Part shown: positions 29,522-61,947 of the stretch, piece by piece
How the letters are laid out: each line of letters opens with the position of its first letter
Numbering within the stretch: position 1 is the first letter of the stretch
Assembly (NCBI RefSeq): GCF_043197895.1
Contig: NZ_JBICTY010000010.1
Location: 829 to 64,828 of the forward strand
DNA length: 64,000 nucleotides
Origin: Cryptosporangium sp. NPDC048952
GTDB lineage: Bacteria > Actinomycetota > Actinomycetes > Mycobacteriales > Cryptosporangiaceae
Direction of reading: 5' to 3'
Notes under the pieces: generated by a model
What the model saw: only the letters and a program-made list of their open reading frames with translations
What the model was told of the DNA's origin: nothing
Database searches by the model: none
Translations under genes and position numbers: made by a program

Positions 29522-29631
29522 GCGTGCTCCTTCGGCTCGGAGCCGGACACTACGGCTGAGCCTCGCAGCGAATTAATGCACTTTCGTCAGGGAACGCCCC
29601 TGGCTTCCGGCACTCGTGATTGGCTGGGAGC

Positions 29632-30654
29632 ATGCGTCCCTGGAACACCGAAATGGCTGGTCAGCTGCATCGCGACACGATCGAATCGAACCTGCTCAGG
29701 GGTAATCCCCTGGGTGATCCCCACGAGCGTCCACTGTGGGTCTACACGCCGCCGGGCTACTCGTCGGACACGCCCTTGCCGGTCGTGTACGTGATTCAGG
29801 GCTACACCGGCCAGATCGACATGTGGAACAACCGCTCGCCGTACCGGCAGACGTTCCCGGAGAACGTCGACGCACTGTTCGCCTCGGGTGAGACGCCCGG
29901 GTGCATCGTCGTCTTCGTGGACGCGTGGACCACGTACGGCGGCTCCCAGTTCGTGGACTCCCCCGGCACCGGGCCGTACCACTCGTACCTCTGCGACGAG
30001 GTCGTGCCGTGGGTCGACGCCCGGTACGCGACGCTGGCGCGCCCGGAGTCGCGGGCGATCAGCGGCAAGTCGTCGGGCGGGTTCGGGGCGATGATCACGC
30101 CGATGCTGCGCCCGGACCTGTTCGGCGCGCTCGCCACGCACGCGGGCGACGCCCTCTACGAGTACTGCTACGTGAGCGGATTCGCGAAGGCGGTGCGGCT
30201 CCTCCGTGAGTACGACGGGGACATCCAGCGGTGGTGGGCCGATTTCCAGTCGCGGACGTCGTTCACGAAGGAGGCCGACGGCGAATTGCTGATCCTGCTC
30301 GGCTGCACCGCCTGCTTCTCCGCCGACGAGGACGGCACCCCGCAGCTGCCGTTCGACCCGATCACCGGCGTGCTGATCCCGGAGCGCTGGCAGCGATGGC
30401 TGGACTGGGACCCGGTGCGGATGATCGACACGTACGCCGACGCGCTGCTGTCGCAACGCTCGATCTGGATCGACGCCGGCACCCGCGACGAGTGGTACCT
30501 CGACCTCGGCGCCCAAGCGTTCCACGCGGGCCTCAAGCGGATCGGCGTCCCCGACGACCGCATCCACTTCGAGCTCTTCGACGCCACCCACGGCGGCATC
30601 GACTACCGCTACCCCCAGGCCCTCAAATGGCTGGCCGAACGCCTGGAACGCTAG
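29632..30654 (+). CDS. Esterase-family alpha/beta hydrolase (enterochelin-esterase / PF00756-like)
   Basis: PLPVVYVIQGYTGQ...AISGKSSGGFGA (GxSxG nucleophile elbow). Confidence 0.65.
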   Translation: MRPWNTEMAGQLHRDTIESNLLRGNPLGDPHERPLWVYTPPGYSSDTPLPVVYVIQGYTGQIDMWNNRSPYRQTFPENVDALFASGETPGCIVVFVDAWTTYGGSQFVDSPGTGPYHSYLCDEVVPWVDARYATLARPESRAISGKSSGGFGAMITPMLRPDLFGALATHAGDALYEYCYVSGFAKAVRLLREYDGDIQRWWADFQSRTSFTKEADGELLILLGCTACFSADEDGTPQLPFDPITGVLIPERWQRWLDWDPVRMIDTYADALLSQRSIWIDAGTRDEWYLDLGAQAFHAGLKRIGVPDDRIHFELFDATHGGIDYRYPQALKWLAERLER

Positions 30655-32804
30655 GCGGGCTCGAGGCGGTAGATGGTGATCTGGCCGGCGCGGTAGTAGA
30701 CCGACCAGTGGGGTGAGGCGTCGAGGGCCGCGCGCAGCGCCTCGACCGAGCCGCGGGGCAGGTTGCCGAAGTACTCGGCGGTTCGCTGCATCAGCGGTGT
30801 GATCACCAGGAACGTCTCCGTGCCGCCGTACGACGCCGCCCAGCTCTCGATCGCCGGGAGCTGGTCGGCGTCGAGCACGAGGTGTTTGAACGACGGCTCG
30901 TCGGTGATCGACGGGTCGACGCTGCGGCCCGGGTTGAGGTCGCCGTAGTCCGCCGTGAGCCGCGCCGGGAACGCGGGCGCGAGCATCGTCATCGTCGACC
31001 CGGCGGGGGCCTGCGTCTCGAGGTAGCGCGCCGCCCGGATGTCGGCCGGCGGGACGACGTGCAGCGCGTACTGTCCCTGCAACCCCTGCAGCGCCGCTAT
31101 CGCGAGCAGCGCGAACACCACGCCGGAAGCAATACCCCAGCGCCGCGACCCCGCCCACCACGACGCGGCGAGCATCGCGCACCACGGCACCGAGAACAGG
31201 TACACCCGGTAGATCGCCTCACCGCCGTAGCTCTGCAGGAACAGCAGCAGGAACGGCGTGAACCCGAGCGCGAACGGGATGACGATCCGCCCGAGCCCAC
31301 GGCGGTGCCGCCACCCGACGACCAGCGCCGCGAGCCAGACCGCCACCGACAGCCCCCGGGCGACGAGCGCCGAGAACTCCTGCGCCCGGGTCCCCCACCC
31401 GCTCGTCGTGCCGGACGCGTTCTTGAACAGGTCGAACCCGTCGAACAGGTTGTACTGACTTTCGACCCCGCCCATCCGCGGCAGGAAATACCCACCCGCG
31501 ATCGCGGCCAGCGCGATCACCAGCCAGTTCGGTCGGATCAGACCGACGATCGTCAGTACGCCGACGCCGAACAGCAGCAGGTACGGGGTGAGCTGGTGCG
31601 CCGCGGTGATCGCCGCGAACACCAGCGCCACGACGACGAGCACCGGCCACCGCGGCCGGTCCCGTACCGGCGGGGCGTCGCGCACGAGCAGCTGACGCAG
31701 CCGGTTGAGCCGTCCGGCGGCCCGCGACCCGGGCAGCCCCCGGCAGCCGTGCATCAGCAGCGCGAAGAACCCCAGGCTCAGGGCGTACGCGTAGGCCTGC
31801 GGGGAGAAGTAGTTCTGGTCGACCCAGAGCGAGCAGACGAACAGGAACACCGCGAGGTACACGGCCCGGACGTCCCGGTTCAGTCCCCGCACGATCGCGG
31901 CGATCAACAGCGCGTCGATCAGCCCGAAGTACGGCGTCGACCAGCCCACGAACCGGATCGACGCCACCCCGGCGACACTGGAGAGCTGCGCGGTGGCGGC
32001 GAACAGCGCCGGCCAGCGCTGGTAGATGTCGTCCGGGTCGACGACCTGGCCGTAGCGCTGGACGAGCTCGACGACGCCGACGTGCTTGTACACCCACGGG
32101 TACTCGGGCACCGGCACGAGCAGCGGCGCGGTCGCCCACACCAGCAGTCCCATCGCCCCGATGCCGGCGAGCAGCACGAGCGTGCGGGCCCGCCCGAACA
32201 GCTCGATGCCGAACCCGACCCCCACCATTCCGATCGCGGCGACGAACGGAACTCCCAGGCCCCACGTCAGACCGAACTCGGTGATCCCGTTCGGGTCGGC
32301 CCGCAGCACGGTGACCAGCCACAGCCCCAGCGCGACGACGAACAGCGTCGGGGTGAGCACGGGAGCCACCCCCGTGGGCGGCGCGTCCGTGCCGACCCGG
32401 TCGAGGACGTCGGTCCGGCCCATCACGTCCGGCCTGCGTAGCCGGGCCAGCGCGACAGCTGCCGTCAAAGCCAGCAGTGCGGCGGTCGCCGCGAACGGGT
32501 GCCACGCCCGGAACCACACCATCGACGCCGCGCTCAGCCCGGTGAGCGCCAGGCTGAACGTGATCGTGAGCGCGCTCGCCACTACCTGGTCGGCGATCCG
32601 CAGGTGGCTGACGATCGCGGCGCCGGGGCCGGCCGTGAAGAACGCCAGCAGCAGCACCAGCCGGATCGGCCCGTCCGGGATCAGCAGCGCGACGGTCCCG
32701 GCCACCACTGTTGCCACGGCGACCGCCGCCAGCCCGGTTTCGGACGTCGGGGTGCCGAGTGCGGTGCTGCCGCGGGGCACCGACGAGAGCAGACGGACGG
32801 TCAC
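30651..32804 (-). CDS. 717-aa polytopic membrane protein, candidate GT-C-type glycosyltransferase or polymerase of the adjacent glycan cluster
   Basis: About 16 predicted TM helices with a large C-terminal soluble domain; GTG start; 18 nt downstream of the flippase gene. Confidence 0.55.
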   Translation of the reverse strand: MTVRLLSSVPRGSTALGTPTSETGLAAVAVATVVAGTVALLIPDGPIRLVLLLAFFTAGPGAAIVSHLRIADQVVASALTITFSLALTGLSAASMVWFRAWHPFAATAALLALTAAVALARLRRPDVMGRTDVLDRVGTDAPPTGVAPVLTPTLFVVALGLWLVTVLRADPNGITEFGLTWGLGVPFVAAIGMVGVGFGIELFGRARTLVLLAGIGAMGLLVWATAPLLVPVPEYPWVYKHVGVVELVQRYGQVVDPDDIYQRWPALFAATAQLSSVAGVASIRFVGWSTPYFGLIDALLIAAIVRGLNRDVRAVYLAVFLFVCSLWVDQNYFSPQAYAYALSLGFFALLMHGCRGLPGSRAAGRLNRLRQLLVRDAPPVRDRPRWPVLVVVALVFAAITAAHQLTPYLLLFGVGVLTIVGLIRPNWLVIALAAIAGGYFLPRMGGVESQYNLFDGFDLFKNASGTTSGWGTRAQEFSALVARGLSVAVWLAALVVGWRHRRGLGRIVIPFALGFTPFLLLFLQSYGGEAIYRVYLFSVPWCAMLAASWWAGSRRWGIASGVVFALLAIAALQGLQGQYALHVVPPADIRAARYLETQAPAGSTMTMLAPAFPARLTADYGDLNPGRSVDPSITDEPSFKHLVLDADQLPAIESWAASYGGTETFLVITPLMQRTAEYFGNLPRGSVEALRAALDASPHWSVYYRAGQITIYRLEPA

Positions 32805-32822
32805 CCAGTCATTCTGTACCTA

Positions 32823-34010
32823 TTACTGCAACAAAGTCCGGATTCGGATCACCAGCCCGGGCAGCAGGACCGCCGCCGTCAGCGCCTGTGCGCCGACATA
32901 CGCCAGTCCGACGCCCGGCAGCCCCAGCCGTGGCAGGAGCACCACCGCACCACCGAGGAACACGACAGCGGTGACGGCCTGGACGAACACGGCCGGCCAG
33001 AGCCGGTTCACCAGGATCGCCAGCGCGCAGTAGACGATGACAACAGCGGTGAACGGAAAGCTCAGCGCCGCCACCCGCAGCAGCGTGCCGCCGCCGTCCG
33101 CGAATGCCGTGCCCTGCACGAGCAGCAGCGTCGGGCCGAGCACCACCAGGCCGAGCGTGCCGGCGACCGCGACCGCCGTCACCAGGCCGAGGATCCGGCG
33201 CAGGTGGTGGGCCAGGCCGTCCGGGTCGCGGCCGACCTGGGCGATGAACGACATCATGATGTTCCAGACCAGCGTCTGCAGCGTGATGACGATCAGCCAC
33301 GGCACCGCGAAGTAGGCGTTGGCCACCGAGCCGGCCACGTGCACGACCAGCACCGGCGGGATCAGCGTGACGACGTTGCCGACCAGGTTGTTGACGTACT
33401 CCGCGGCCACGAAGTTGCCCAGCTGCCGCGGGCCGGGCAACTGCGATTCGCCGACGCTGCGCGCCGGGGCGAGGCGAGCGAAGATCACGAACGTGAGCAC
33501 GACGGCCGCGACCGCCGCGGGAATGCACCAGGCGGCCTCGATGCCCAGCTCGGAGCCGGTGGCGACCAGCGCCACGAGCAGTACGAGCTTGGCGCTGGAG
33601 GTCGCCACCTGCTTGGCCACGACCGTGCCGGCCCGGCCGAACGCGGTGAGCACGCCGTCCTGCACGTAGAAGAGCGCGTAGACGGTCACGCCGAGCACGA
33701 AGCCGAGCCAGTCCCAGCGTCCGAGGCCGAAGCCGTGGCCCGGGCCGAGCAGCAGGTAGGTGCCGCCGAACAGCACCGAGCCGGCGAGGATCCCGGCGAA
33801 GCCGGAGCCCAGGAACGCACCTGTGCGGTGCCCCGCCTGGGGCAGGAACCGCACGAACACCGACGAGAGGTTGAGCTGCGCGATCCCGCTGACCAGTGCG
33901 ATCGCCGAGACGGTCGCGTTGCCGTGCCCGACCTCGTCGGTCGGGTACAGGTGTGCGGCGGCGACCCAGAAAAGCATGTTCAACGCCGACGCCAGCACTG
34001 TCGACGACAT
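32823..34010 (-). CDS. Wzx-like polysaccharide flippase (polysaccharide-biosynthesis-protein family)
   Basis: 12-14 TM helices, N-terminus LRQASALMSSTVLASALNMLFWVAAAHLY typical of PF01943/PF13440. Start set at the internal ATG (ORF opens at 34163 but would overlap the GT2 gene). Confidence 0.6.
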   Translation of the reverse strand: MSSTVLASALNMLFWVAAAHLYPTDEVGHGNATVSAIALVSGIAQLNLSSVFVRFLPQAGHRTGAFLGSGFAGILAGSVLFGGTYLLLGPGHGFGLGRWDWLGFVLGVTVYALFYVQDGVLTAFGRAGTVVAKQVATSSAKLVLLVALVATGSELGIEAAWCIPAAVAAVVLTFVIFARLAPARSVGESQLPGPRQLGNFVAAEYVNNLVGNVVTLIPPVLVVHVAGSVANAYFAVPWLIVITLQTLVWNIMMSFIAQVGRDPDGLAHHLRRILGLVTAVAVAGTLGLVVLGPTLLLVQGTAFADGGGTLLRVAALSFPFTAVVIVYCALAILVNRLWPAVFVQAVTAVVFLGGAVVLLPRLGLPGVGLAYVGAQALTAAVLLPGLVIRIRTLLQ

Positions 34011-34087
34011 CAGCGCCGACGCTTGACGCAGCACCGTGGACGACCTCCACCTGGACACCGCACTCCGAGCTACGGGAGGGGCGATCG

Positions 34088-35407
34088 TCACCGGAGACCG
34101 ACCGGGGTCTTCGTGGCCGCACCAGCCGGCGCGGAGGCCCGCAGTCCTCGGAGGTAACGCCACGGGCCGGCGAGCATGCCTCGCCGGTTCGCGGCGAACA
34201 GCTCGGTCGGGAAGTCCTTCCGGACCGTGCCGACCCGGACGCTGTCGTTGCTCGTCAGGTCCTTCACCGCGGTCGGCACCAGCCGGAGCAGCCGCACGAG
34301 CCGACGCGGGTCGTCCCGGATCAGCGCGGCGTAGAACGCGGTGAGCCCGGCGCCGTACCCGGCCATCTGCGTGCGGAGCCCGTCGAGGTCGGCACGGTGC
34401 ACGTGACGCACCAGCGCCGCCGGGTGGTAAAGCGTGGTCGCCCCGAGGTCGAGCAGCCGGCTGAAGATCAGCGTGTCCTCGCCGCTCTGCGCGGGTGTAC
34501 CGGCACCGAGTGCCTCGTCGAACCCTTTCAACGTGCGCAGGGCGTGCAGACGGAACGCCATGTTGGCCCCGACGCCGAACGCCGGCAGCGGGTAGAGCGG
34601 GCTCTGGGCGGTGTGCGGCCCGAACTCGTCGGGAAGGAACCCGCGGCCCTTGCTGTGGCCGCCGAACTGCTCGAACCAGGCCTGGGCGTCGGTGCGGAGC
34701 TCGGCCGGGACGACGACACCGGACACCGCGACAGCGGCCGGGTTGTCCCCGAAAGCACGGACGATCTCGGCGACCCAGTGCGGGTCGGCGCGGACGTCGT
34801 CGTCGGTCCAGGCGACGATCCGCTCACCGGGTTCGCGGCTCAGCGCGGCGATCGCGGCGTTCCGGGCCCGCGACAGCCCGGGTCGCGCCTCGGCGACGTA
34901 CTCGATCGTCAACCGACCGCGGAACTCCTCGACCACGTGACGCGTGCGGTCGCCGACCGGCGCGTTGTCGACCACCAGGACGTCGAAGCGGTCGAACTCC
35001 TGGTCGGTGAGGCTGATCAGGCAGTCACGCAGCTCGTCGGGGTGCTCCCGGGTGCAGATGACGACGGTGACCGGCGGGGCCAGCTCCAGCGCGCGGGCCC
35101 GCCCGGCCAGGAACGGCGGGGTCGCGGCCAGCGCCGAGAGCGGAATGCCGTCCGGCGTCAGCATGGCGACGTCGATCCGCGCCGCGATCGCATTCCGGCA
35201 CTCCGCCAGGATGCCGTCGAGCAGCGCGGCCGGGCTCAACTCGTCGTCCGACGGCAGGTCCAGCCGCACCATCGCGAGCGGCTCGGTGAACAGCCGGACG
35301 ATCACCCAGGCCGCCTCACGCCGGTGCCCGAGCGTGTCGAAGACGTGGACCGACGGCAGCGGAGCGGACAGCTCGACGTCCAGCACGACGCCGGGGATGC
35401 GACTCAT
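34088..35407 (-). CDS. Family 2 glycosyltransferase
   Basis: VTVVICTREHPDELRDCLISL...VLVVDNAPVGD...WTDDDV (GT-A DxD). Confidence 0.75.
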   Translation of the reverse strand: MSRIPGVVLDVELSAPLPSVHVFDTLGHRREAAWVIVRLFTEPLAMVRLDLPSDDELSPAALLDGILAECRNAIAARIDVAMLTPDGIPLSALAATPPFLAGRARALELAPPVTVVICTREHPDELRDCLISLTDQEFDRFDVLVVDNAPVGDRTRHVVEEFRGRLTIEYVAEARPGLSRARNAAIAALSREPGERIVAWTDDDVRADPHWVAEIVRAFGDNPAAVAVSGVVVPAELRTDAQAWFEQFGGHSKGRGFLPDEFGPHTAQSPLYPLPAFGVGANMAFRLHALRTLKGFDEALGAGTPAQSGEDTLIFSRLLDLGATTLYHPAALVRHVHRADLDGLRTQMAGYGAGLTAFYAALIRDDPRRLVRLLRLVPTAVKDLTSNDSVRVGTVRKDFPTELFAANRRGMLAGPWRYLRGLRASAPAGAATKTPVGLR

Positions 35408-35416
35408 CGTGGTCCT

Positions 35417-36172
35417 CTACGTCAGCTCGTGCGCCAGCAGACGGGTGCTCGCCAGGCGGGTCAGACGCCAGGCGGGTTGAAGAGCGCGCTTGACGATCGG
35501 CGCGAAGCCCGGTTCCCCGGACGTGACGAGATTCCGCAGTTCGGCGCGGCTCATGCCGGGCAGCGGCTGCAGCCGGGGCAGCCCGAACCGGTCGTCGCCC
35601 GACCGCGCGATCCGGCGTCCGATCACGCACGCGTTCAGGTAGCCGGCGTCCGCGACGGCCTGCCGGGACTGCCGGTTGCTGTAGCCGTGCGGATAGCAGA
35701 ACGAACGCACCTCGACGCCGAGCCGCGCGGTGAGTTCGGCGCGGCTGCGCACGAGCTCGTCGCCGAGCGCGATCGGGGCCAGCGTGTCCATCGGACGGTG
35801 CCGCCGGGAGTGACTGCCGATCTCGACGCCGGACGCCGCGAGCGCGCCGAGCTGGTCCCAGTCGAGGTACCCGTGGTGACCCACCGAGCCGGTCGGGACG
35901 TAGAGCGTCGACCGCGCGCCGAACTCGGCCATCACGACCGCGGCGTTCAGGAAGTCGTCGTAGGCGTCGTCGAACGTCAGCGCGACGACCGGGCGGTCGG
36001 GGTCGGCGGCCTTCGCGGACAGCGCTTCGGTGAGCCCGAGCAGCTCCCAGCCGTCGGCGGTGAGCGTCGAGACGTGCATGCGGAAATCGGCCGCGGGAAC
36101 CTGCAGCCGGTCGGGCACGGAGTCCGGTTCGGCCGGGACGCCGTGGTACATCAGGATCGGCAGCGTGGTCAT
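35417..36172 (-). CDS. Polysaccharide deacetylase (NodB-homology domain)
   Basis: ALTFDDAYDDF...IGSHSRRHRPM...YPHGY motifs. Confidence 0.75.
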   Translation of the reverse strand: MTTLPILMYHGVPAEPDSVPDRLQVPAADFRMHVSTLTADGWELLGLTEALSAKAADPDRPVVALTFDDAYDDFLNAAVVMAEFGARSTLYVPTGSVGHHGYLDWDQLGALAASGVEIGSHSRRHRPMDTLAPIALGDELVRSRAELTARLGVEVRSFCYPHGYSNRQSRQAVADAGYLNACVIGRRIARSGDDRFGLPRLQPLPGMSRAELRNLVTSGEPGFAPIVKRALQPAWRLTRLASTRLLAHELT

Positions 36173-37071
36173 CGTGCCAGCCCGGTCCTGGCCAGCTGCA
36201 GCGCGAACCCCACCCCGGTCGACGCCACGCCCGCGAGCACCATGCCGGCCTTGGTGACGTCGCCCTGGAGCAGGTAGGCGCGCAGGCCGCGGGGCAGCAC
36301 CCGACGCAGGTAACTGCTCTCCTCGGAGAGCGCGGTGCGGTTCCGGGTGAGCTTGGCGAGACCGGCCTTACCGCGGCCTTCCAGCCAGCAGCGGCGCAGG
36401 AAGAACGCGACGCTGGAGCGCTCGGCGGGAACGTGGTGGCGGATCACCGCGGCCGGCACGCGCAGCCAGACGGCGCCCGGGCGGCTGCGGGACATGCGCA
36501 GGCAGAGCTCGGTGTCCTCGGGTTCGGAAACGTCGCCCACCTTGCCGAAGTCCGCGCGGAAGCCGCCGACCTCGGCGAATACGTCGCGGCGGACGATCAT
36601 GCCGCCGGTCCAGACGTTGCGGACCGCTGTCGGCTCGGCGGAGGCCTCGGGCAGCGTCGCGCCGATCACCCAGCCGAACTCGCGGGGGAACCAGCGGGGC
36701 TCACTCGTGTGCCAGACCGGCAGGATGCGGGAGCCGGCGCCGAGGACGTTCTCGTCGTCCATCGCGGCGACGAGGGCCGTGAGCCAGCCCGGCTCGGCGA
36801 ACGCGTCGTCCTCGAGGAAGACGACCAGCGGCGTGGTCGCCGCGAGCGCGATCGTGTTCCGGGAGCCGGAGACGCCCTGCTGGTACTGGTTCTCGACGAC
36901 GTCGATCTCGTCGCCGTAGTGGTCTGTCAACCGCTCGAAGAGCGGCCGGTTGTGGTCGACGGACACGACGAGCCGGTGCGGGTGATCCTGGCTGCGGACC
37001 GAGGCGATCGCCTCGACGAGCTGGCTCCAGCGCTGTTCGGTGTGGCACGTGATGCCGACGGTCACCGTCAT
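36169..37071 (-). CDS. Family 2 glycosyltransferase
   Basis: VGITCHTE...VVFLEDDAF...; start ATG shares one nt with the upstream TGA (TGATG coupling). Confidence 0.7.
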   Translation of the reverse strand: MTVTVGITCHTEQRWSQLVEAIASVRSQDHPHRLVVSVDHNRPLFERLTDHYGDEIDVVENQYQQGVSGSRNTIALAATTPLVVFLEDDAFAEPGWLTALVAAMDDENVLGAGSRILPVWHTSEPRWFPREFGWVIGATLPEASAEPTAVRNVWTGGMIVRRDVFAEVGGFRADFGKVGDVSEPEDTELCLRMSRSRPGAVWLRVPAAVIRHHVPAERSSVAFFLRRCWLEGRGKAGLAKLTRNRTALSEESSYLRRVLPRGLRAYLLQGDVTKAGMVLAGVASTGVGFALQLARTGLAR

Positions 37072-37898
37072 CAGACAGCGCTGTTCACGCGGGTGGGGGT
37101 CATACCTGCGGCATCGACCGCGCGCACCGGAACCTGAGATCCGAGTGCGGCACTGAGACGTGCGGCACGCGTCATGGCCGGGAGCTGCGGGCTGAACCGC
37201 TCGCGCACGATCGTGACCAGGACGCGCCACCCGTCGCGGAACGTGCGCAGGTTGCTCTCACCGTGCAGGCGGTCGTACTCGAAGCTCGGCACCTCGGAGA
37301 CGACCATGTTCGCCCGGGCGACCCGGATGTTGATCAGCGTCTCGACCTCGAAGCCGTCGCCCCACTTCTGGGCGGGCGTGTGCGCCGGGGCTAAGCCGAA
37401 CGACGGGATCGCGCTCTTGCGGAAGGCGTTGTAGCCGTAGCAGAGGTCGGTGTAGCTGGTCAGGAACAGCAGGTTCGTGAGCGTGTTCAGGCCCCAGTTG
37501 CCGGCGCGGCGCAGTGGGCTGATGTCGTCGCTGCCGCCGCCGTCGACGAAACGGCTGCCCTTGACGTAGTCGGCGCCGTTGTCGAGCTCGCGGACGAACG
37601 CGTCGATCTCGGCCGGGTCCATCGAGCCGTCGGCGTCGATCATGACGACGTAGTCGCTGGTGGCGGCCTCGAAGCCGGCGGCGAGCGCGTTGCCCTTGCC
37701 GCGGCGGGTCTGGCTGATGACCTTGATGTCCGGGCGAGCATTTCTTGCGGCCGCCACGGTGCCGTCGATGGAGTTCGCGTCGACCAGCACGACCTCGTCG
37801 ACGTAGTCCGGCAGGGCGGCGAGAACGACCGGGATGTTCCGGGCCTCGTTCATCGTCGGGATGACGACGCTGACGGTGCGGTTCATCGTGGTGCTCAT
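37071..37898 (-). CDS. Family 2 glycosyltransferase, polyprenol-phosphate sugar transferase (DPM1/GtrB-like)
   Basis: VSVVIPTMNEARNIPVVL...VVLVDANSIDGT...VVMIDADGS (DxD). Confidence 0.75.
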   Translation of the reverse strand: MSTTMNRTVSVVIPTMNEARNIPVVLAALPDYVDEVVLVDANSIDGTVAAARNARPDIKVISQTRRGKGNALAAGFEAATSDYVVMIDADGSMDPAEIDAFVRELDNGADYVKGSRFVDGGGSDDISPLRRAGNWGLNTLTNLLFLTSYTDLCYGYNAFRKSAIPSFGLAPAHTPAQKWGDGFEVETLINIRVARANMVVSEVPSFEYDRLHGESNLRTFRDGWRVLVTIVRERFSPQLPAMTRAARLSAALGSQVPVRAVDAAGMTPTRVNSAV

Positions 37899-55985: not shown

Positions 55986-56941
55986 CCGATCTTCCCCTCG
56001 ACCAGCTGCTCACGTACCGCAGCGCCCAGACCCGCCCGGACGACTTCGTCGAGTTCTGGGACAAGACCCTGCTGGCGGCCCGTGGTTACGACATCGACGT
56101 GACCGCAGATCTGGTCTCCACCGGTTTGACCACGATCGACACATACGACGTCTCGTTCGCCGGGTATGACGGCGAGCGGATCCGGGCGTGGCTGCGCGTA
56201 CCGGCCGGCGCGCGCGAGCCGCTGCCCACCGTCGTCGAGTACATCGGCTACGGCGGCGGACGCGGCCACGTGCTGGAGAACCTGACCTGGGCCTCCGCCG
56301 GTTTCGCCCATCTCCACATGGACACCCGCGGCCAGGGCTCGAAGTGGAGCGTCGGGCACACGCCGGACTCGGCCGCGTCCGGGCCGCAGATCCCGGGGTT
56401 CGTCACCCGCGGCATCGAGGACCCGTCGACGTACTACTACCGGCGGCTCTTCACCGACGCGGTGCGCGCCGTCGACGCCGCCCGGGCGCTGCCGCAGGTC
56501 GACGTCGATCGGATCGCTGTCTACGGCAGGAGCCAGGGCGGCGCGCTGACGCTGGCCGTCGCCGGGCTGCGCGACGACGTCCGCGCTGCGGCGGCGATGG
56601 TGCCGTTCCTCTCCGACTTCCCGCGGTCGACCCGGATCACCGACGCGCACCCGTACCGCGAGGTGGCCGACTACCTGGCGACGCACCGCGAGAACGTCGC
56701 GCAGGCCCACCGCACGCTCTCGTACTTCGACGCGGTCAACATGGTGGCCACTGCGAATGCACCGGCGCTGATCTCGGTGGCGCTGATGGACGCGATCTGC
56801 CCGCCGTCGTCGGTGTACGCGGCGATCAACGCCTACGCCGGGCCGCACGAGGTGCTGACCTGGGACTACAACGGCCACGAGGGCGGCGGCCCGGTCGACC
56901 AGGAGCGGACGCTGAAGTTCGTGCGCGAGCAGCTGGGCTAA
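55979..56941 (+). CDS. Acetylxylan esterase / cephalosporin-C deacetylase (CE7) family
   Basis: GxSxG nucleophile GRSQGG; typical CE7 N-terminus (LDQLLTYRSAQTRPDDFVEFWDKTL); GTG start overlapping the tetR stop. Confidence 0.75.
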   Translation: MLTDLPLDQLLTYRSAQTRPDDFVEFWDKTLLAARGYDIDVTADLVSTGLTTIDTYDVSFAGYDGERIRAWLRVPAGAREPLPTVVEYIGYGGGRGHVLENLTWASAGFAHLHMDTRGQGSKWSVGHTPDSAASGPQIPGFVTRGIEDPSTYYYRRLFTDAVRAVDAARALPQVDVDRIAVYGRSQGGALTLAVAGLRDDVRAAAAMVPFLSDFPRSTRITDAHPYREVADYLATHRENVAQAHRTLSYFDAVNMVATANAPALISVALMDAICPPSSVYAAINAYAGPHEVLTWDYNGHEGGGPVDQERTLKFVREQLG

Positions 56942-58623
56942 CCGAGCCGGTGCACGTAGATGTGGTACCCGAGGTCGGCGGCGATCCGCGACAGGTGCGC
57001 GGCGAGCACGTCCGGCTCGGCGTCGGCGTCGGGTAGCTCGGCGTCGAGCACTCCGTAGACCTCGTCGGCACCCCGCACCGGAACGGCGATTCCGGTGCCG
57101 GGGCCGAACGTCACGGCGGCAGTGGTGAAGGTCGTGTCCACCCGGCCTTCACCACTGACCTGCTCGGACGTGCCGCGGGAGTCCGCGGTCAACCGGAGCT
57201 CGGTGCCCTCGGCCAGCCAGAGCCGGACCCGCGCGCCGGGCTGCGAGTCCGCGATCGCACCGACCAGACGCTGCGCGACCTCGACGGAGTAGCCGCAGCG
57301 CAGCAGCAGACGGGCGACGGCCAGCTCGCAGGCGCGCCGGCCCCGGTCCTGGCTCGCGCTGGTGACGTCACGCAGCGCCACCACCGCACCCTCCGCGCCG
57401 CTCCCCACGACGATCCGCTCGGCGTTGGCGAGGAAGCGACGCACCGGGCGGCCCGGGACCCGGAAGGTGAGCGGGGCGTCCCGGACGATCTCGCCCGCCA
57501 GGGCCCGCGCGCTCGGGTAGTCCGCCGGGTGCACCGGCTCGCCGTCGGGACCGAAGAGGTATTCGTGCAGCCGCAGCGCGGCCTCGACCAGCGACCCCGG
57601 CTTCGCCTCCATGACGTCGAGGAGCGCCGGGTTGCCGAACAGCGGGATGCCCTTCGCATCGCAGGCGTAGACCGGGGTGCCGAGGCTGTTGAGCACCGCT
57701 TGGAGCAGGCCCTCGCGGCGGCTGGCGTCGGCTTCCGCGTCGAACCGGCCCGACGCGTCGAGCAGTGACACGCAGATCCGGGTGCCGCCCGCGCCGGACA
57801 CCGCGCGGATCGACGCGTCCACCGGCATCCGGCGGCCATCCTTCGTCGTCGCCCACATCGTCCGGCGGCGCACTGCGCCGCGCCGCTCGGCCGGCAGCGC
57901 GGACAACGTCGCCAGGATCGCGCGGATCGTCACCGCGTCGCGGTCCGGGAACAGCAGCGTGTGCAGCGGGGTGCCGAGGACTTCCTCGCGGGTCCAGCCG
58001 AACGTCGTGGCCGCCGCCGCGTTCCAGGCGAGGATCGCGCCGTCGCCGTCGACCACCAGGAACGACTCGGCCAACGCGTCCAGCAACGGGACGAGGTCGA
58101 GCAGGTTGACGGTCAGCTCAGCGGCCATGCCGGCGACGCCGGGCAGCAGGCCGGCTGTCGTCGCGACACCGGTCAGCGCGGCACGCTGGGCGACCGTCCA
58201 CTCCCGGGGTGCGTGGTCGAGCGCGCAGACACTTCCGACGACGGCCCCGTCCGACCCGATCAGCGGCACCGCGGCGAACGCACCGATGCCGAGGTAGGAG
58301 ACGACGGCGGCGCGCGCAGCCGTCGGGTCGGCGGCGGTGTCGGCGAGCCACGCCGGTTCGCCGGAGGCCACCACGGTGCGGCACAGCGAGTCCGCGACCG
58401 CGATCCGCCGGGTCAGCGCGAACACACCGCCGATGCCGTGCAGACCGATGAGTCGGTCCCATTCGCCGTCGACCAGAGAGATGACGCCGATCGGTGCAGC
58501 CGTGACGCTGGCCGCCGCACCGGCGATCGCGTCCATGGAGAGCGGGACTCCGGAGAGGATCGCCGTTGCGCGATCCACCGCCGCGAGCCGTCTTTCGTCG
58601 TAGAGCTCGCCGTTATCGTCCAT
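56938..58623 (-). CDS. Multi-sensor protein (GAF-PAS-PAS-GAF-like) without a recognisable output domain
   Basis: PAS-like segment LVVDGDGAILAWNAAAATTFGWTREEVLG; GAF-like flanks. Confidence 0.55.
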   Translation of the reverse strand: MDDNGELYDERRLAAVDRATAILSGVPLSMDAIAGAAASVTAAPIGVISLVDGEWDRLIGLHGIGGVFALTRRIAVADSLCRTVVASGEPAWLADTAADPTAARAAVVSYLGIGAFAAVPLIGSDGAVVGSVCALDHAPREWTVAQRAALTGVATTAGLLPGVAGMAAELTVNLLDLVPLLDALAESFLVVDGDGAILAWNAAAATTFGWTREEVLGTPLHTLLFPDRDAVTIRAILATLSALPAERRGAVRRRTMWATTKDGRRMPVDASIRAVSGAGGTRICVSLLDASGRFDAEADASRREGLLQAVLNSLGTPVYACDAKGIPLFGNPALLDVMEAKPGSLVEAALRLHEYLFGPDGEPVHPADYPSARALAGEIVRDAPLTFRVPGRPVRRFLANAERIVVGSGAEGAVVALRDVTSASQDRGRRACELAVARLLLRCGYSVEVAQRLVGAIADSQPGARVRLWLAEGTELRLTADSRGTSEQVSGEGRVDTTFTTAAVTFGPGTGIAVPVRGADEVYGVLDAELPDADAEPDVLAAHLSRIAADLGYHIYVHRLG

Positions 58624-58703
58624 TTGCGCGCTTTGACAGAGGGAGTAGATCAACGCGCAGAAACGATAACAGCATTAACGGCATTTCCGTCCCTTTGCGC
58701 CGG

Positions 58704-61088
58704 TTAGGCGGCGGGAACGGGCTCCGGCTCCTCGGCTTCCTCTTCGTCCTTTTCGTCGAGGGTGGCTGGCACTTCCCACGGGCTCAGCTGGTCGAAGAGC
58801 CGAGCGAGCATTCCCATCGCGGCGAGCAGGATCAGCGGGAAGACAGTGCTGAACGCGCGCGCCCCGGAGGGCGTCCCGCCGAGCACTTCCAGGACGACGC
58901 AGCCCACGATGCCACCGAGCGCGAGAGCGGCGAGGGGATCACGCAGCGCCCGGAGCGGCGCCGCGACCAGGGCCAGCACGAGCACCGAGCAGAGCACGGC
59001 GTCCTCGGCGAGGTAGGCCCCGTCGGTCCGGAGCAGCGCACCCACGTCGACCCCGCCGCGTACCAGTTCCCCGAGACTTCCGAGGTACCGCGCGTCAGCG
59101 ATCGGAGCGACCTGCCCGAGCGCGACCAGCGCCACGGCGAGCCCGGACGCGACCGCCACGTACGGCAGCCAGGCGTTGCGCAGCGTCCGCTCCCGCCAGG
59201 CCGTGAACACCCAGGCGGACGCCACGGCGGCCACGAACGCGGTGGCCGGCGCCCGGCTCGCCAGCAGCAGCGCGGTGAGCACCGCGAAGACGACGAGCGT
59301 CCGGCGTCCGCGACGGCTGCCGAGCGGCAGCGTGAACAGGAGCGCGCAGCAGAGCGCCAGCGCGAACATGTCGGCCGTACCGGTCAGCGACGTGGCGACG
59401 ATCCGGTCGCAGATTCCGAACACGACAGCGGTGACCGTGCCGGCCAGCGCGCCCCACCGCTTGGCCGCGAAGTACGTCAGCATGCCGACCGCGGCGAAGA
59501 ACGACAGCAGCGGGACGACGATCAGGCCGCGGTCCCCCAGTGCTCCGACGAACGGCGCCGACAGCACCGGGTACACCAGGTTCGGGTCCGCGGAGCTGGC
59601 GTGCGCGAACAGCCAGTCGGAGCCCTGGCCGAAGCAGGAGTCCCGGCCGCAGTTCGTCGCGGCGAACGGCTTGTCGTAGAGCTCCGCATAGGTGCGCTCG
59701 GCGGCCTCACCGGGCGTGAAGCCGAGGATCCGGTACGACCAGGCCAGGTGGTACATGCTGCTCGAGTAGAAGTGCCAGATCCGGTAGGAGAGCACTGCCG
59801 GGACCAGCACCGCGAGGCTCGCGACGGTCACCCACGCGTGCGCCGGCATCCGCCCGAGCCAAGTCTTCGGCAGCCAGCGCCGGGCGCGGTGTTCCAGCGG
59901 CACCGGCTCCCGCGGCTCGGCCTCCGTGGAGCGCGACGGCAGCCGTCGGATCGGTCCCCACAGGTCGACCATCAGCGCGACGACGGCCAGCACCAGCAGC
60001 GGCACGACCGGCGCGTGGTAGCGGAACGCCGCCGGCCAGAACTCGATCACGTTGAATGCGCTGACCACGAAGAACGCTCCGGCGGCCAGGCCTGAGATTT
60101 CACTGCGGAAACGCCAGACAACCGCCACTGTCGACGCTACGAGCAGCGCGACCAGCGCGAGGTCGTACCGCACGGCCAGCAGGTCGGACCGGATGATGTT
60201 CTCGGTGACCTCCGGGATCGCCGCGATCCCGCTGGTGCCGAAGTACTTGATCGTGAGCTCGTCGAACCGCTGGGCGAGCGACAAGTCCTCGCCGCCGAAG
60301 ATCAGCGGCGTGATCAACATCTGCGCGGCGAGCACGACGAACGCGACGACGTTTCCCCACACCGCGAACGACAGCCAGGGGTTCCGGAACGCCCGGTCCC
60401 GGATCGCGACCAGCAGCCACACGCCCGCGACCGCCACCGGCAGCGCGATCGCGAACTGACGGTTGAGCATGCCGAGAGCGATCAGCGCGACGTAGCTGAT
60501 CAGCTGTTTCCGGCCGACTTTCCGCGCCAGCGGAAGCACGAGCAGTGGGAGCGCGAGCAGTGCGAACGCGGGCCCCTCCGTGTGCGCGACGACGCTCCAG
60601 CGCGACACGTAGACCGGCAGCAGCAGCATCGCACCGGCGACCAGCGCCCACCGCGGCCCCCACAGCCGCGAGGCGAGCAGGACGGTCGCCAGGATCGCCA
60701 ACGCGTACCCGACGATCGGGACGACGAGCATCCCCGCCGGACCGAACAGCGCCACGAACGGCGCGGAGAGCACCGGAAGCAGCACGCGCGGCCCGACCAC
60801 GGCCGCGTACGGGCCGGTGAAAAAGCTCTCGTGGAAGTCGGGCGGCCAGCAGGTGATGCAGGTGGCCAACCCCGGGTTGTCGCGCAGGTAGTCGAACGAC
60901 ATCTGAGCGGCCTCGGCCTGGGGGTGGCCGAGGTACCAGTAGGTCCACGCCAGGTAGATCCGGGAGTCCGGGCCGTACTGGGCGTTCGTCACGAGCGCCA
61001 GCGCCACCGCCAGGACGCAGAGCGCGCCCAGCACGAGCCAACCCGACACCGGCAGAGCGTTGCGGAGGGACCGCGCCATCGTCTTCAT
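58704..61088 (-). CDS. 794-aa polytopic membrane protein made of two homologous halves, each with a conserved extracytoplasmic Cys pair
   Basis: Half 1 YLAWTYWYLGHP...ATCITCW...PVLSAPFVALFGPAGMLVVP; half 2 YHLAWSYRILGFTP...ATNCGRDSC...PVLSAPFVGALGDRGLIVVP. Confidence 0.65.
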   Translation of the reverse strand: MKTMARSLRNALPVSGWLVLGALCVLAVALALVTNAQYGPDSRIYLAWTYWYLGHPQAEAAQMSFDYLRDNPGLATCITCWPPDFHESFFTGPYAAVVGPRVLLPVLSAPFVALFGPAGMLVVPIVGYALAILATVLLASRLWGPRWALVAGAMLLLPVYVSRWSVVAHTEGPAFALLALPLLVLPLARKVGRKQLISYVALIALGMLNRQFAIALPVAVAGVWLLVAIRDRAFRNPWLSFAVWGNVVAFVVLAAQMLITPLIFGGEDLSLAQRFDELTIKYFGTSGIAAIPEVTENIIRSDLLAVRYDLALVALLVASTVAVVWRFRSEISGLAAGAFFVVSAFNVIEFWPAAFRYHAPVVPLLVLAVVALMVDLWGPIRRLPSRSTEAEPREPVPLEHRARRWLPKTWLGRMPAHAWVTVASLAVLVPAVLSYRIWHFYSSSMYHLAWSYRILGFTPGEAAERTYAELYDKPFAATNCGRDSCFGQGSDWLFAHASSADPNLVYPVLSAPFVGALGDRGLIVVPLLSFFAAVGMLTYFAAKRWGALAGTVTAVVFGICDRIVATSLTGTADMFALALCCALLFTLPLGSRRGRRTLVVFAVLTALLLASRAPATAFVAAVASAWVFTAWRERTLRNAWLPYVAVASGLAVALVALGQVAPIADARYLGSLGELVRGGVDVGALLRTDGAYLAEDAVLCSVLVLALVAAPLRALRDPLAALALGGIVGCVVLEVLGGTPSGARAFSTVFPLILLAAMGMLARLFDQLSPWEVPATLDEKDEEEAEEPEPVPAA

Positions 61089-61280: not shown

Positions 61281-61709
61281 GTGACGCTCACCGAGAAACG
61301 GGCGTGGATCACCCTGGTCGTCACCGTCGTCGCTTATGCGGGGTACGCGATCACGGTGCTGAGGCGTGCGGACGGGCAGCCGCTGCCCGACGTGCACTAC
61401 GCGGGCCCGTTGCTCACGACGATCGGCGTCGCGATGATCGCGGCCATCGTGCTCGAGATCGTGGTCTCGATGTTCACGCCGAACGCGTCACGTGCGACCG
61501 ACGTCCGCGACCGGGAGATCGGTCGGCTCGGCGAGTACGTCGGCCAGTCGTTCGTCGCGATCGGTGGCGTCGCGGGGCTGCTGATGGCGATCGCGGAGTG
61601 GGACTGGTTCTGGATCGCCAACGTCATCTACCTGTGCTTCGCCCTGGCCGCTGTGCTGGGCGCGGTCGCGAAGGTCGTCATCTATCACCGCCCCTTCCCT
61701 TCCCTATGA
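61281..61709 (+). CDS. Small membrane protein (DUF2178-like)
   Basis: Four TM helices; RBS aggagg before GTG; 13 nt upstream of the XRE gene. Confidence 0.55.
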   Translation: MTLTEKRAWITLVVTVVAYAGYAITVLRRADGQPLPDVHYAGPLLTTIGVAMIAAIVLEIVVSMFTPNASRATDVRDREIGRLGEYVGQSFVAIGGVAGLLMAIAEWDWFWIANVIYLCFALAAVLGAVAKVVIYHRPFPSL

Positions 61710-61722
61710 ACACGAGTCCCGA

Positions 61723-61947
61723 ATGGTGAAGCCGACCCGGGTCACGAACTCGATCCGCGCCCTGCGTTTCGCGAACAGCGAGATGACCCAGGCTGACCTG
61801 GCGATGCGCATCGGCGTGACCCGTCAGACCGTCATCGCCATCGAGCAGGGCCGCTACTCGCCGTCCCTCGAAATGGCCTTCCGCATCGCCCGTGTGTTCT
61901 CGGTTCCCCTCGACGACGTTTTCCACTATCCGGAGGAAGCGCCATGA
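61723..61947 (+). CDS. XRE-family helix-turn-helix transcriptional regulator
   Basis: MTQADLAMRIGVTRQTVIAIEQGRYSPSLEMAFRIARVF. Confidence 0.8.
   Translation: MVKPTRVTNSIRALRFANSEMTQADLAMRIGVTRQTVIAIEQGRYSPSLEMAFRIARVFSVPLDDVFHYPEEAP

Follow-up and report, generated by a model that had tools for sequence, protein, structure and literature searches.

Does the double-length membrane protein encoded in a 64,000-nt stretch of the Cryptosporangium sp. NPDC048952 genome (contig NZ_JBICTY010000010.1, positions 829 to 64,828; hereafter the window) hold two equivalent enzymes in one chain, or have its halves taken on different roles? Its open reading frame (ORF; 58704..61088, minus strand, in a window of ~70% GC) runs from an ATG start to a TAA stop and encodes 794 AA. 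The product is 100% identical to P0001 of the same strain, which NCBI names 'glycosyltransferase family 39 protein'. An earlier note, made from the sequence without database searches, had described it as internally duplicated over about 120 residues. Since self-BLAST of each protein gave only the diagonal, explicit half-against-half alignments were used instead. These confirm the duplication and extend it well beyond that length: AA 12–377 align with approximately 414–765 over 368 columns (27.7% identity, E 2.6e-30, 107 bits), vs. a maximum of 24.3 and a mean of 17 bits in 100 shufflings of the C-terminal half. The layout is one of two tandem modules of ~385 AA, separated by a 31-residue basic linker and followed by a short acidic tail. 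The identical PVLSAPFV block noted in each half is present at AA 105–112 and 507–514. The Cys pairs are present as well, within ATCITCW (AA 75) and ATNCGRDSC (AA 477), with spacings of two and four residues (C77-x2-C80 and C480-x4-C485) and not the two to three first given. We found 31 homologs of 690–920 AA in independent genome and metagenome assemblies, and the halves align with each other in 19 of the 21 closest (E 1e-20 to 1e-41). P0003 and P0017 were skipped in this test, as their linker pattern was unmatched; a second module was found in both by hmmalign.

Hydropathy, the positive-inside rule and AlphaFold2 (AF2) helices predict 10 transmembrane (TM) helices per module, 20 in total, in agreement with the membrane protein described earlier. 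Both module N-termini are predicted to be cytoplasmic and both Cys pairs, lying within long first loops (AA 36–117 and 437–521), extracytoplasmic, the side on which the earlier note had placed them. The N-module (AA 1–384; 59937..61088, minus strand, as for all features of this gene) has an 82-residue first loop (60738..60983) with short helices. This loop carries D41 (codon 60966..60968), the C77-I-T-C80 pair (60849..60860), R101 and PVLSAPFV (60753..60776), which leads into TM2. T170-E171, R210-Q211, D302, D309 and R356-Y357 fall in a further span at 60018..60581. The C-module (AA 416–770; 58779..59843) is predicted with high AF2 confidence to have the same fold. Its first loop (59526..59780) contains the C480/C485 pair (nt 59634–59651), the second PVLSAPFV (nt 59547–59570) and, at the position of D41, S443.

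An exhaustive search of 1.84 billion representative proteins with a family profile, built from nine N-modules plus six C-modules, gave 388 matches at E ≤ 1e-3, including 58 with E ≤ 1e-30. The majority are single-module proteins of 355–440 AA that cover the full profile in one stretch, and all single-module relatives sampled are metagenomic. Almost nothing was gained (7 matches) when a broad single-module profile was used in a word-indexed search for homologs. Alignment of ~150 representatives to the N-module hidden Markov model revealed a signature of eleven residues (D41, R101, S/A108, T170, E/D171, R210, Q211, D/E302, D309, R356 and Y357), all of which are predicted from the topology to lie on the extracytoplasmic face. 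The D41 position is occupied by Asp in every module with an otherwise intact signature except two (Glu and Gly). It stands six residues past TM1, the place of the catalytic Asp in GT-C enzymes, and D41 is therefore our candidate for that residue.

At these positions the two modules differ clearly. The window N-module retains 11 of the 11 signature residues, whereas the C-module reads S443, N503, S510, A572, D573, R612, A613, D689, D696, R744 and A745, having lost the equivalents of D41, R101, T170, Q211 and Y357 (5 of 11). Equivalents of R101, T170, Q211 and Y357, residues that are nearly universal in the ~150 family members, are missing from the C-modules of all 21 double proteins. That of D41 is gone in 17 of the 21 and kept only in the deep-branching P0018–P0021, which indicates that C-module decay was stepwise. 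In the '1.5-module' relatives P0022–P0031 (Rugosimonospora, Micromonosporaceae metagenome-assembled genomes (MAGs) and KLBMP 9797), the N-module is intact and the C-half lacks the first loop, the Cys pair and SAPFV. The active-site region of the C-module is therefore dispensable in that lineage.

The window C-module has nonetheless kept the fold, the Cys pair, the SAPFV block and several structural residues. Relative to the C. japonicum ortholog, the ratio of nonsynonymous to synonymous substitution rates (dN/dS) was 0.135 for the N-module vs. 0.32 for the C-module, and 0.07 vs. 0.29 for their first loops. Two further orthologs gave the same trend, with the C-module ranging from 0.32 to 0.55. 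Both modules are under purifying selection; combined with the residue loss, this indicates that the C-module is retained for a purpose other than a canonical active site.

As to the nature of the protein, fold comparison supports the GT-C-like module suggested earlier: structural similarity to solved GT-C enzymes is found, and the 10 predicted TM helices of each module fall within the 7–13 of the polytopic membrane domain in the general GT-C definition (PMC11127046). We therefore treat the 794-AA product as a GT-C protein at the level of predicted fold. Gene context of five sampled single-module relatives points in a similar direction. A GT2 gene of the polyprenyl-phosphate-sugar-synthase class lies nearby in all five and is adjacent or nearly so in four: P0186 shares a 4-bp overlap with it, P0046 is directly followed by it, P0049 is separated from it only by the paralog X409, and P0097 by a GtrA gene and a 61-AA ORF. 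The fifth, P0052, sits in an Rml/epimerase/GT1/ABC cluster with GT2 and DUF2304 genes ~8 kb away. GtrA-family genes stand beside three of the five, and the best NCBIfam matches of the relatives' GT2 proteins are PpgS, AglJ, dolichyl-phosphate (Dol-P)-hexose transferase and ArnC. This layout is that of Gtr-type three-component extracytoplasmic glycosylation systems (PMC11127046).

Together, these observations make it reasonably probable, in our judgement, that the product is a GT-C-fold membrane glycosyltransferase in which the N-module is catalytic and the C-module is a permanently attached, non-catalytic partner. In such a scheme a cytoplasmic GT2 would charge polyprenyl phosphate with a sugar, and a flippase would carry the polyprenyl-phosphate-sugar across the membrane. 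The N-module would then bind the flipped donor through the Arg, Gln and Tyr residues of its putative outer-face set (D41, R101, T170/E171, R210/Q211, D302, D309 and R356/Y357). The same set would also activate the acceptor, and D41 would be used in moving one sugar to an envelope glycan or a protein outside the membrane, as in Gtr-type systems. The C-module would most likely stabilise the dimer or help acceptor binding, making the whole a covalent pseudo-heterodimer comparable to the non-covalent dimers of other GT-C enzymes. Enzyme activity, the lipid-sugar donor class, the inactivity of the C-module and the disulphides proposed below are all deduced from sequence.

Several observations weigh against this proposal. 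The window gene has neither a GT2 nor a flippase gene next to it: no polyprenyl-phosphate-sugar synthase (GtrB-like GT2) lies within ~20 kb and no GtrA-family gene at the window locus. The nearest GT2 resembling such a synthase (37071–37898) is ~21 kb off and belongs to a polysaccharide-type cluster of its own. By sequence, the protein is tied to known GT-C families only marginally (PMT_2, 27.6 bits vs. a cut-off of 26.1), and a profile search of PDB sequences gave no match at E ≤ 10, so that only fold comparison ties the family to known structures. Finally, the C-module keeps R612, D689, D696 and R744 and is under purifying selection, and its counterpart in P0018–P0021 retains, in addition, the Asp and Arg of the D-S-R motif, which leaves some chance of a residual or different activity.

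These last points are also what an enzyme with two active modules would predict. Such a bifunctional protein would attach two different sugars, make two different linkages or serve two acceptors, the active site of its C-module having been rewired, and it would readily accommodate the dN/dS values of 0.32–0.55, the confident AF2 model and the retained Cys pair and SAPFV. We nevertheless consider it unlikely, though to be taken seriously, because four near-universal residues are absent from every C-module of the double proteins and D41 from most, and because the Rugosimonospora-type C-half dispenses with the whole first loop next to an intact N-module.

The fold could also serve no enzyme at all, but a lipid- or glycolipid-binding scaffold or a transporter resembling PIG-U/GAB1, possibly tied to the Pup-proteasome locus in which a paralog resides. 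A near-invariant Asp after TM1 and ten further outer-face polar residues kept across a divergent family are, however, typical of an active site. Moreover, single-module relatives occur in operons with a polyprenyl-phosphate-sugar synthase and GtrA, and catalytic GT-Cs outscore PIG-U in the fold comparison, which renders such a non-enzymatic role quite improbable.

The NCBI name would make the product an ordinary GT39 protein O-mannosyltransferase (Pmt). Yet at E ≤ 10 generic PMT_2 was the only Pfam match, with PMT (PF02366) and PMT_4TMC (PF16192) unmatched; no NCBIfam Pmt model matched, and no PMT appeared in the PDB profile search. Among 19 single-module relatives, PMT_2 is touched by three and Glyco_transf_22 grazed by two, so that Pfam at present has no model that truly fits the family. 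GT39 loop 1 carries an Asp-Glu motif, whereas loop 1 of the window protein reads G-P-D41-S-R, in line with a family consensus of D-S-R. ArnT and ALG12 score almost level with Pmt4, which places the similarity at the fold level, and the Pmt assignment is accordingly very improbable. From the sequence, GT39 membership would be excluded, and protein O-glycosylation would still be a possible function. Likewise, no sequence match to GT83 (ArnT) models, to solved ArnT or to NCBIfam ArnT was obtained, and the Pfam models for GT87/DUF2029 (PimE-like) and DUF2142 did not match. The database labels GT39, ArnT family and DUF2079 therefore over-reach. The earlier note had named clear membership in a characterised single-module family as the finding that would speak against it, and no membership in GT39, GT83 or GT87/DUF2029 was found. 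That two adjacent paralogous genes were joined by a sequencing or annotation error, as the unfused tandem paralogs X409 and P0049 (overlapping by 4 bp) might suggest, has a negligible chance of being true, as the repeat is kept in the closest homologs, more than 30 proteins, drawn from independently assembled genomes of several species and from metagenomes, preserve a single frame with a conserved linker motif, and the window frame is open throughout from 61088 to 58704.

Among known systems, the Pmt1–Pmt2 heterodimer and the Pmt4 homodimer (PDB 6p2r, 9e61, 9i5k) are formed by separate polypeptides, while the window protein has its two modules fused. It also differs in lacking a MIR domain, the DE motif and any PMT or PMT_4TMC match, in an identity of 8–10% and in having one degenerate module. 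Gtr-type systems consist of a GtrB-like synthase, a GtrA/MATE flippase and a GT-C, and include GT136 ORF12 and mycobacterial PpgS/Rv3632/Rv3779 galactosamine (GalN) transfer (PMC11127046, PMC3485146, PMC9671496). Their likeness lies in the gene arrangement of the single-module relatives, in the PpgS-like GT2 and DUF2304 genes beside second copies in Micromonosporaceae-type loci, and in the same predicted chemistry, with the window protein fitting the GT-C transferase component. The window gene, however, has neither synthase nor flippase adjacent, its product does not belong by sequence to GT136, Rv3779 or any other family described, and none of these systems has been described with a double-module architecture. 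ArnT (GT83; PDB 5f15/5ezm; 12% identity) is a single module with a C-terminal periplasmic domain that is absent here. PIG-U/GAB1 of the glycosylphosphatidylinositol (GPI) transamidase (PDB 7w72, 7wld, 9ub7) provides a non-catalytic GT-C fold, but as separate eukaryotic subunits that are neither fused to an active GT-C nor paralogs of their partner. The EmbA–EmbB heterodimer and EmbC homodimer (GT53; PDB 7bvf) have unfused subunits of ~1,100 AA with carbohydrate-binding domains, both catalytic, and their structural similarity to the window protein is much weaker.

Dimeric GT-Cs and a non-catalytic GT-C fold are thus already known, and it is the fusion of two modules in one chain that is the new aspect. 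We know of no described protein with such a fusion; a search for a chain with two GT-C modules gave no example in the literature that could be searched, an absence that is no proof of novelty. A large part of the actinobacterial cell envelope is the work of GT-C enzymes, and some of them, such as the Emb proteins, are drug targets. Several GT-Cs dimerise for reasons that are unclear, and the fusion offers a genetically simple system for the role of the second protomer in stability, acceptor binding or regulation, with one module that has lost conserved outer-face residues yet is under selection, and with a second lineage that reached the same arrangement independently. In addition, a sequence family without real Pfam coverage, mislabelled GT39, ArnT or DUF2079, now has a testable residue signature.

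To trace the origin of the double architecture, we used a neighbour-joining tree of modules and best-hit lists. The C-modules of the Cryptosporangium and Micromonosporaceae proteins form one group, next to a clade of the N-modules plus the single-module P0041 and P0042. This points to one old duplication as the source of the double architecture in these proteins, in keeping with the ancient tandem duplication proposed earlier. A second double lineage, P0070/P0184 (744 AA) and P0166 (758 AA), has the reverse arrangement of the window protein, with the degenerate module N-terminal and the intact one C-terminal. Its modules group together inside a different single-module clade, and it therefore represents an independent fusion. 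At locus L021 (7420–9788), the tandem pair X409 and P0049 comprises two single-module genes with both signatures intact, downstream of GtrA and GT2 genes; this is presumed to be the unfused precursor state of a double protein. That an intact and a degenerate module came to be paired more than once suggests an ancestral single-module enzyme that acted as a dimer and required only one active site.

A full-length tree resolves the Cryptosporangium proteins into two paralog groups, each named species having one of each. Group A is the window type, and group B lies in the Pup-proteasome locus, between mpa (proteasome ATPase) and dop. This position is also held by copies from a Cryptosporangiaceae MAG, Catelliglobosispora and Rugosimonospora/Micromonosporaceae, in eight distinct loci in total (L001 8001–10580; L003/L010; L006; L007; L011 3285–5408; L014; L015; L016). 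At least 13 related loci were obtained in a search from N-modules that used one narrow peptide pattern. For the same-strain paralog P0014, the Pup-locus position was deduced from its nearest relative, P0010. As the mpa–dop position is found across Cryptosporangiaceae and Micromonosporaceae, it is regarded as ancestral and the window gene as a relocated genus-level duplicate. The association with the Pup-proteasome locus offers a lead as yet unexplained. Rv2113 of M. tuberculosis, an uncharacterised callyaerin target, occupies the same Pup-locus position. It is a membrane protein of 387 AA without a known domain (size and TM count from 10.1101/2023.07.12.548660). A joint reading, to which we give a small chance, would be that a homodimeric single-module GT-C became a fused asymmetric pseudo-heterodimer at least twice independently, that the position between mpa and dop reflects a link of envelope glycosylation to pupylation-dependent proteolysis, and that Rv2113 is a diverged relative.

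Micromonosporaceae-type loci contain a second family copy directly next to a cassette composed of a 438-AA protein (weakly SpoVB/MOP-like), a 233-AA GT2 (best NCBIfam match PpgS, 7e-29) and a 114-AA DUF2304 protein. The PpgS-like cassette directly follows prcA (L002 10408–14761, with epimerases; L003 16298–18565; L012, L013 and L015) and corresponds to M. tuberculosis Rv3630-Rv3631(PpgS)-Rv3632 in gene order and sizes (PMC3485146, PMC9671496, PMC6487176).

At the window locus itself, the neighbours give no pathway clue. A GAF-PAS protein gene (56938..58653, minus strand) lies 50 bp downstream on the same strand and is possibly co-transcribed with the GT-C gene. Upstream and divergent, on the plus strand, are a gene for a 142-AA membrane protein without family match (61281..61709), syntenic in all group-A loci, and a small XRE-type helix-turn-helix (HTH) gene (~61706–61930), syntenic in 5 of 5, as is the GAF-PAS gene. 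A zinc-dehydrogenase gene is also upstream and divergent. This arrangement is kept in four other Cryptosporangium genomes, and the GAF-PAS, 142-AA and HTH genes may form a sensor/regulator unit with the GT-C gene. A promoter and terminator scan of 56.8–61.8 kb found nothing, being uninformative at 70% GC. The distant polysaccharide-type cluster (29587–37898, minus strand) is a possible, unlinked donor source. It contains GT2 genes at 34088–35407, 36169–37230 and 37071–37898, a polysaccharide deacetylase gene (35417–36172) and three unannotated ORFs of ~430–530 AA; the third GT2 is AglJ-like (E 5.5e-37), of the AglJ/Dol-P-hexose-transferase type. The ORF at 32809–34122 shows a weak resemblance to the X438 flippase-like protein.

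Within the protein, the Cx2C and Cx4C pairs are each likely to form a small disulphide that would stiffen the first loop in which it lies. Cys pairs are conserved in, and confined to, the clade around the double-module proteins and are absent from most single-module relatives. We also considered a four-Cys metal site between the modules and rejected it, because relatives that have wholly lost the first loop of the C-half still keep the CxxC of the N-module. The cytoplasmic linker (AA 385–415; 59844..59936) has a low predicted local distance difference test (pLDDT) score at 396–411, and the region AA 378–415 contains 9 Lys/Arg. It begins within a P-S-R-S-T-E motif (AA 384–389; nt 59922–59939) at the cytoplasmic end of TM10 of the N-module, preceded by Arg residues and forming part of the R-x-P-S-R-S-T-E-A motif common to double-module homologs. 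The shorter motif is seen in nearly all double and '1.5-module' proteins and not in single-module relatives, and may be phosphorylated or serve as a processing site. In the orthologous loci L004 and L005, a gene for a Ser/Thr kinase occurs 2–4 kb from the GT-C gene. In P0023 and P0025–P0027 the linker has grown into long Arg/Glu/Ala-rich low-complexity inserts. The acidic C-terminal tail (AA 771–794; 58707..58778) is of low confidence and predicted to be cytoplasmic.

Finally, a protein family of 666–670 AA, unmatched in Pfam and NCBIfam, accompanies the GT-C (L003 5886–7886; L002 14855–16867 and 16919–18322). In the MAG it lies between mpa and the GT-C gene; Rugosimonospora-type loci have two tandem copies of it past the PpgS-like cassette.

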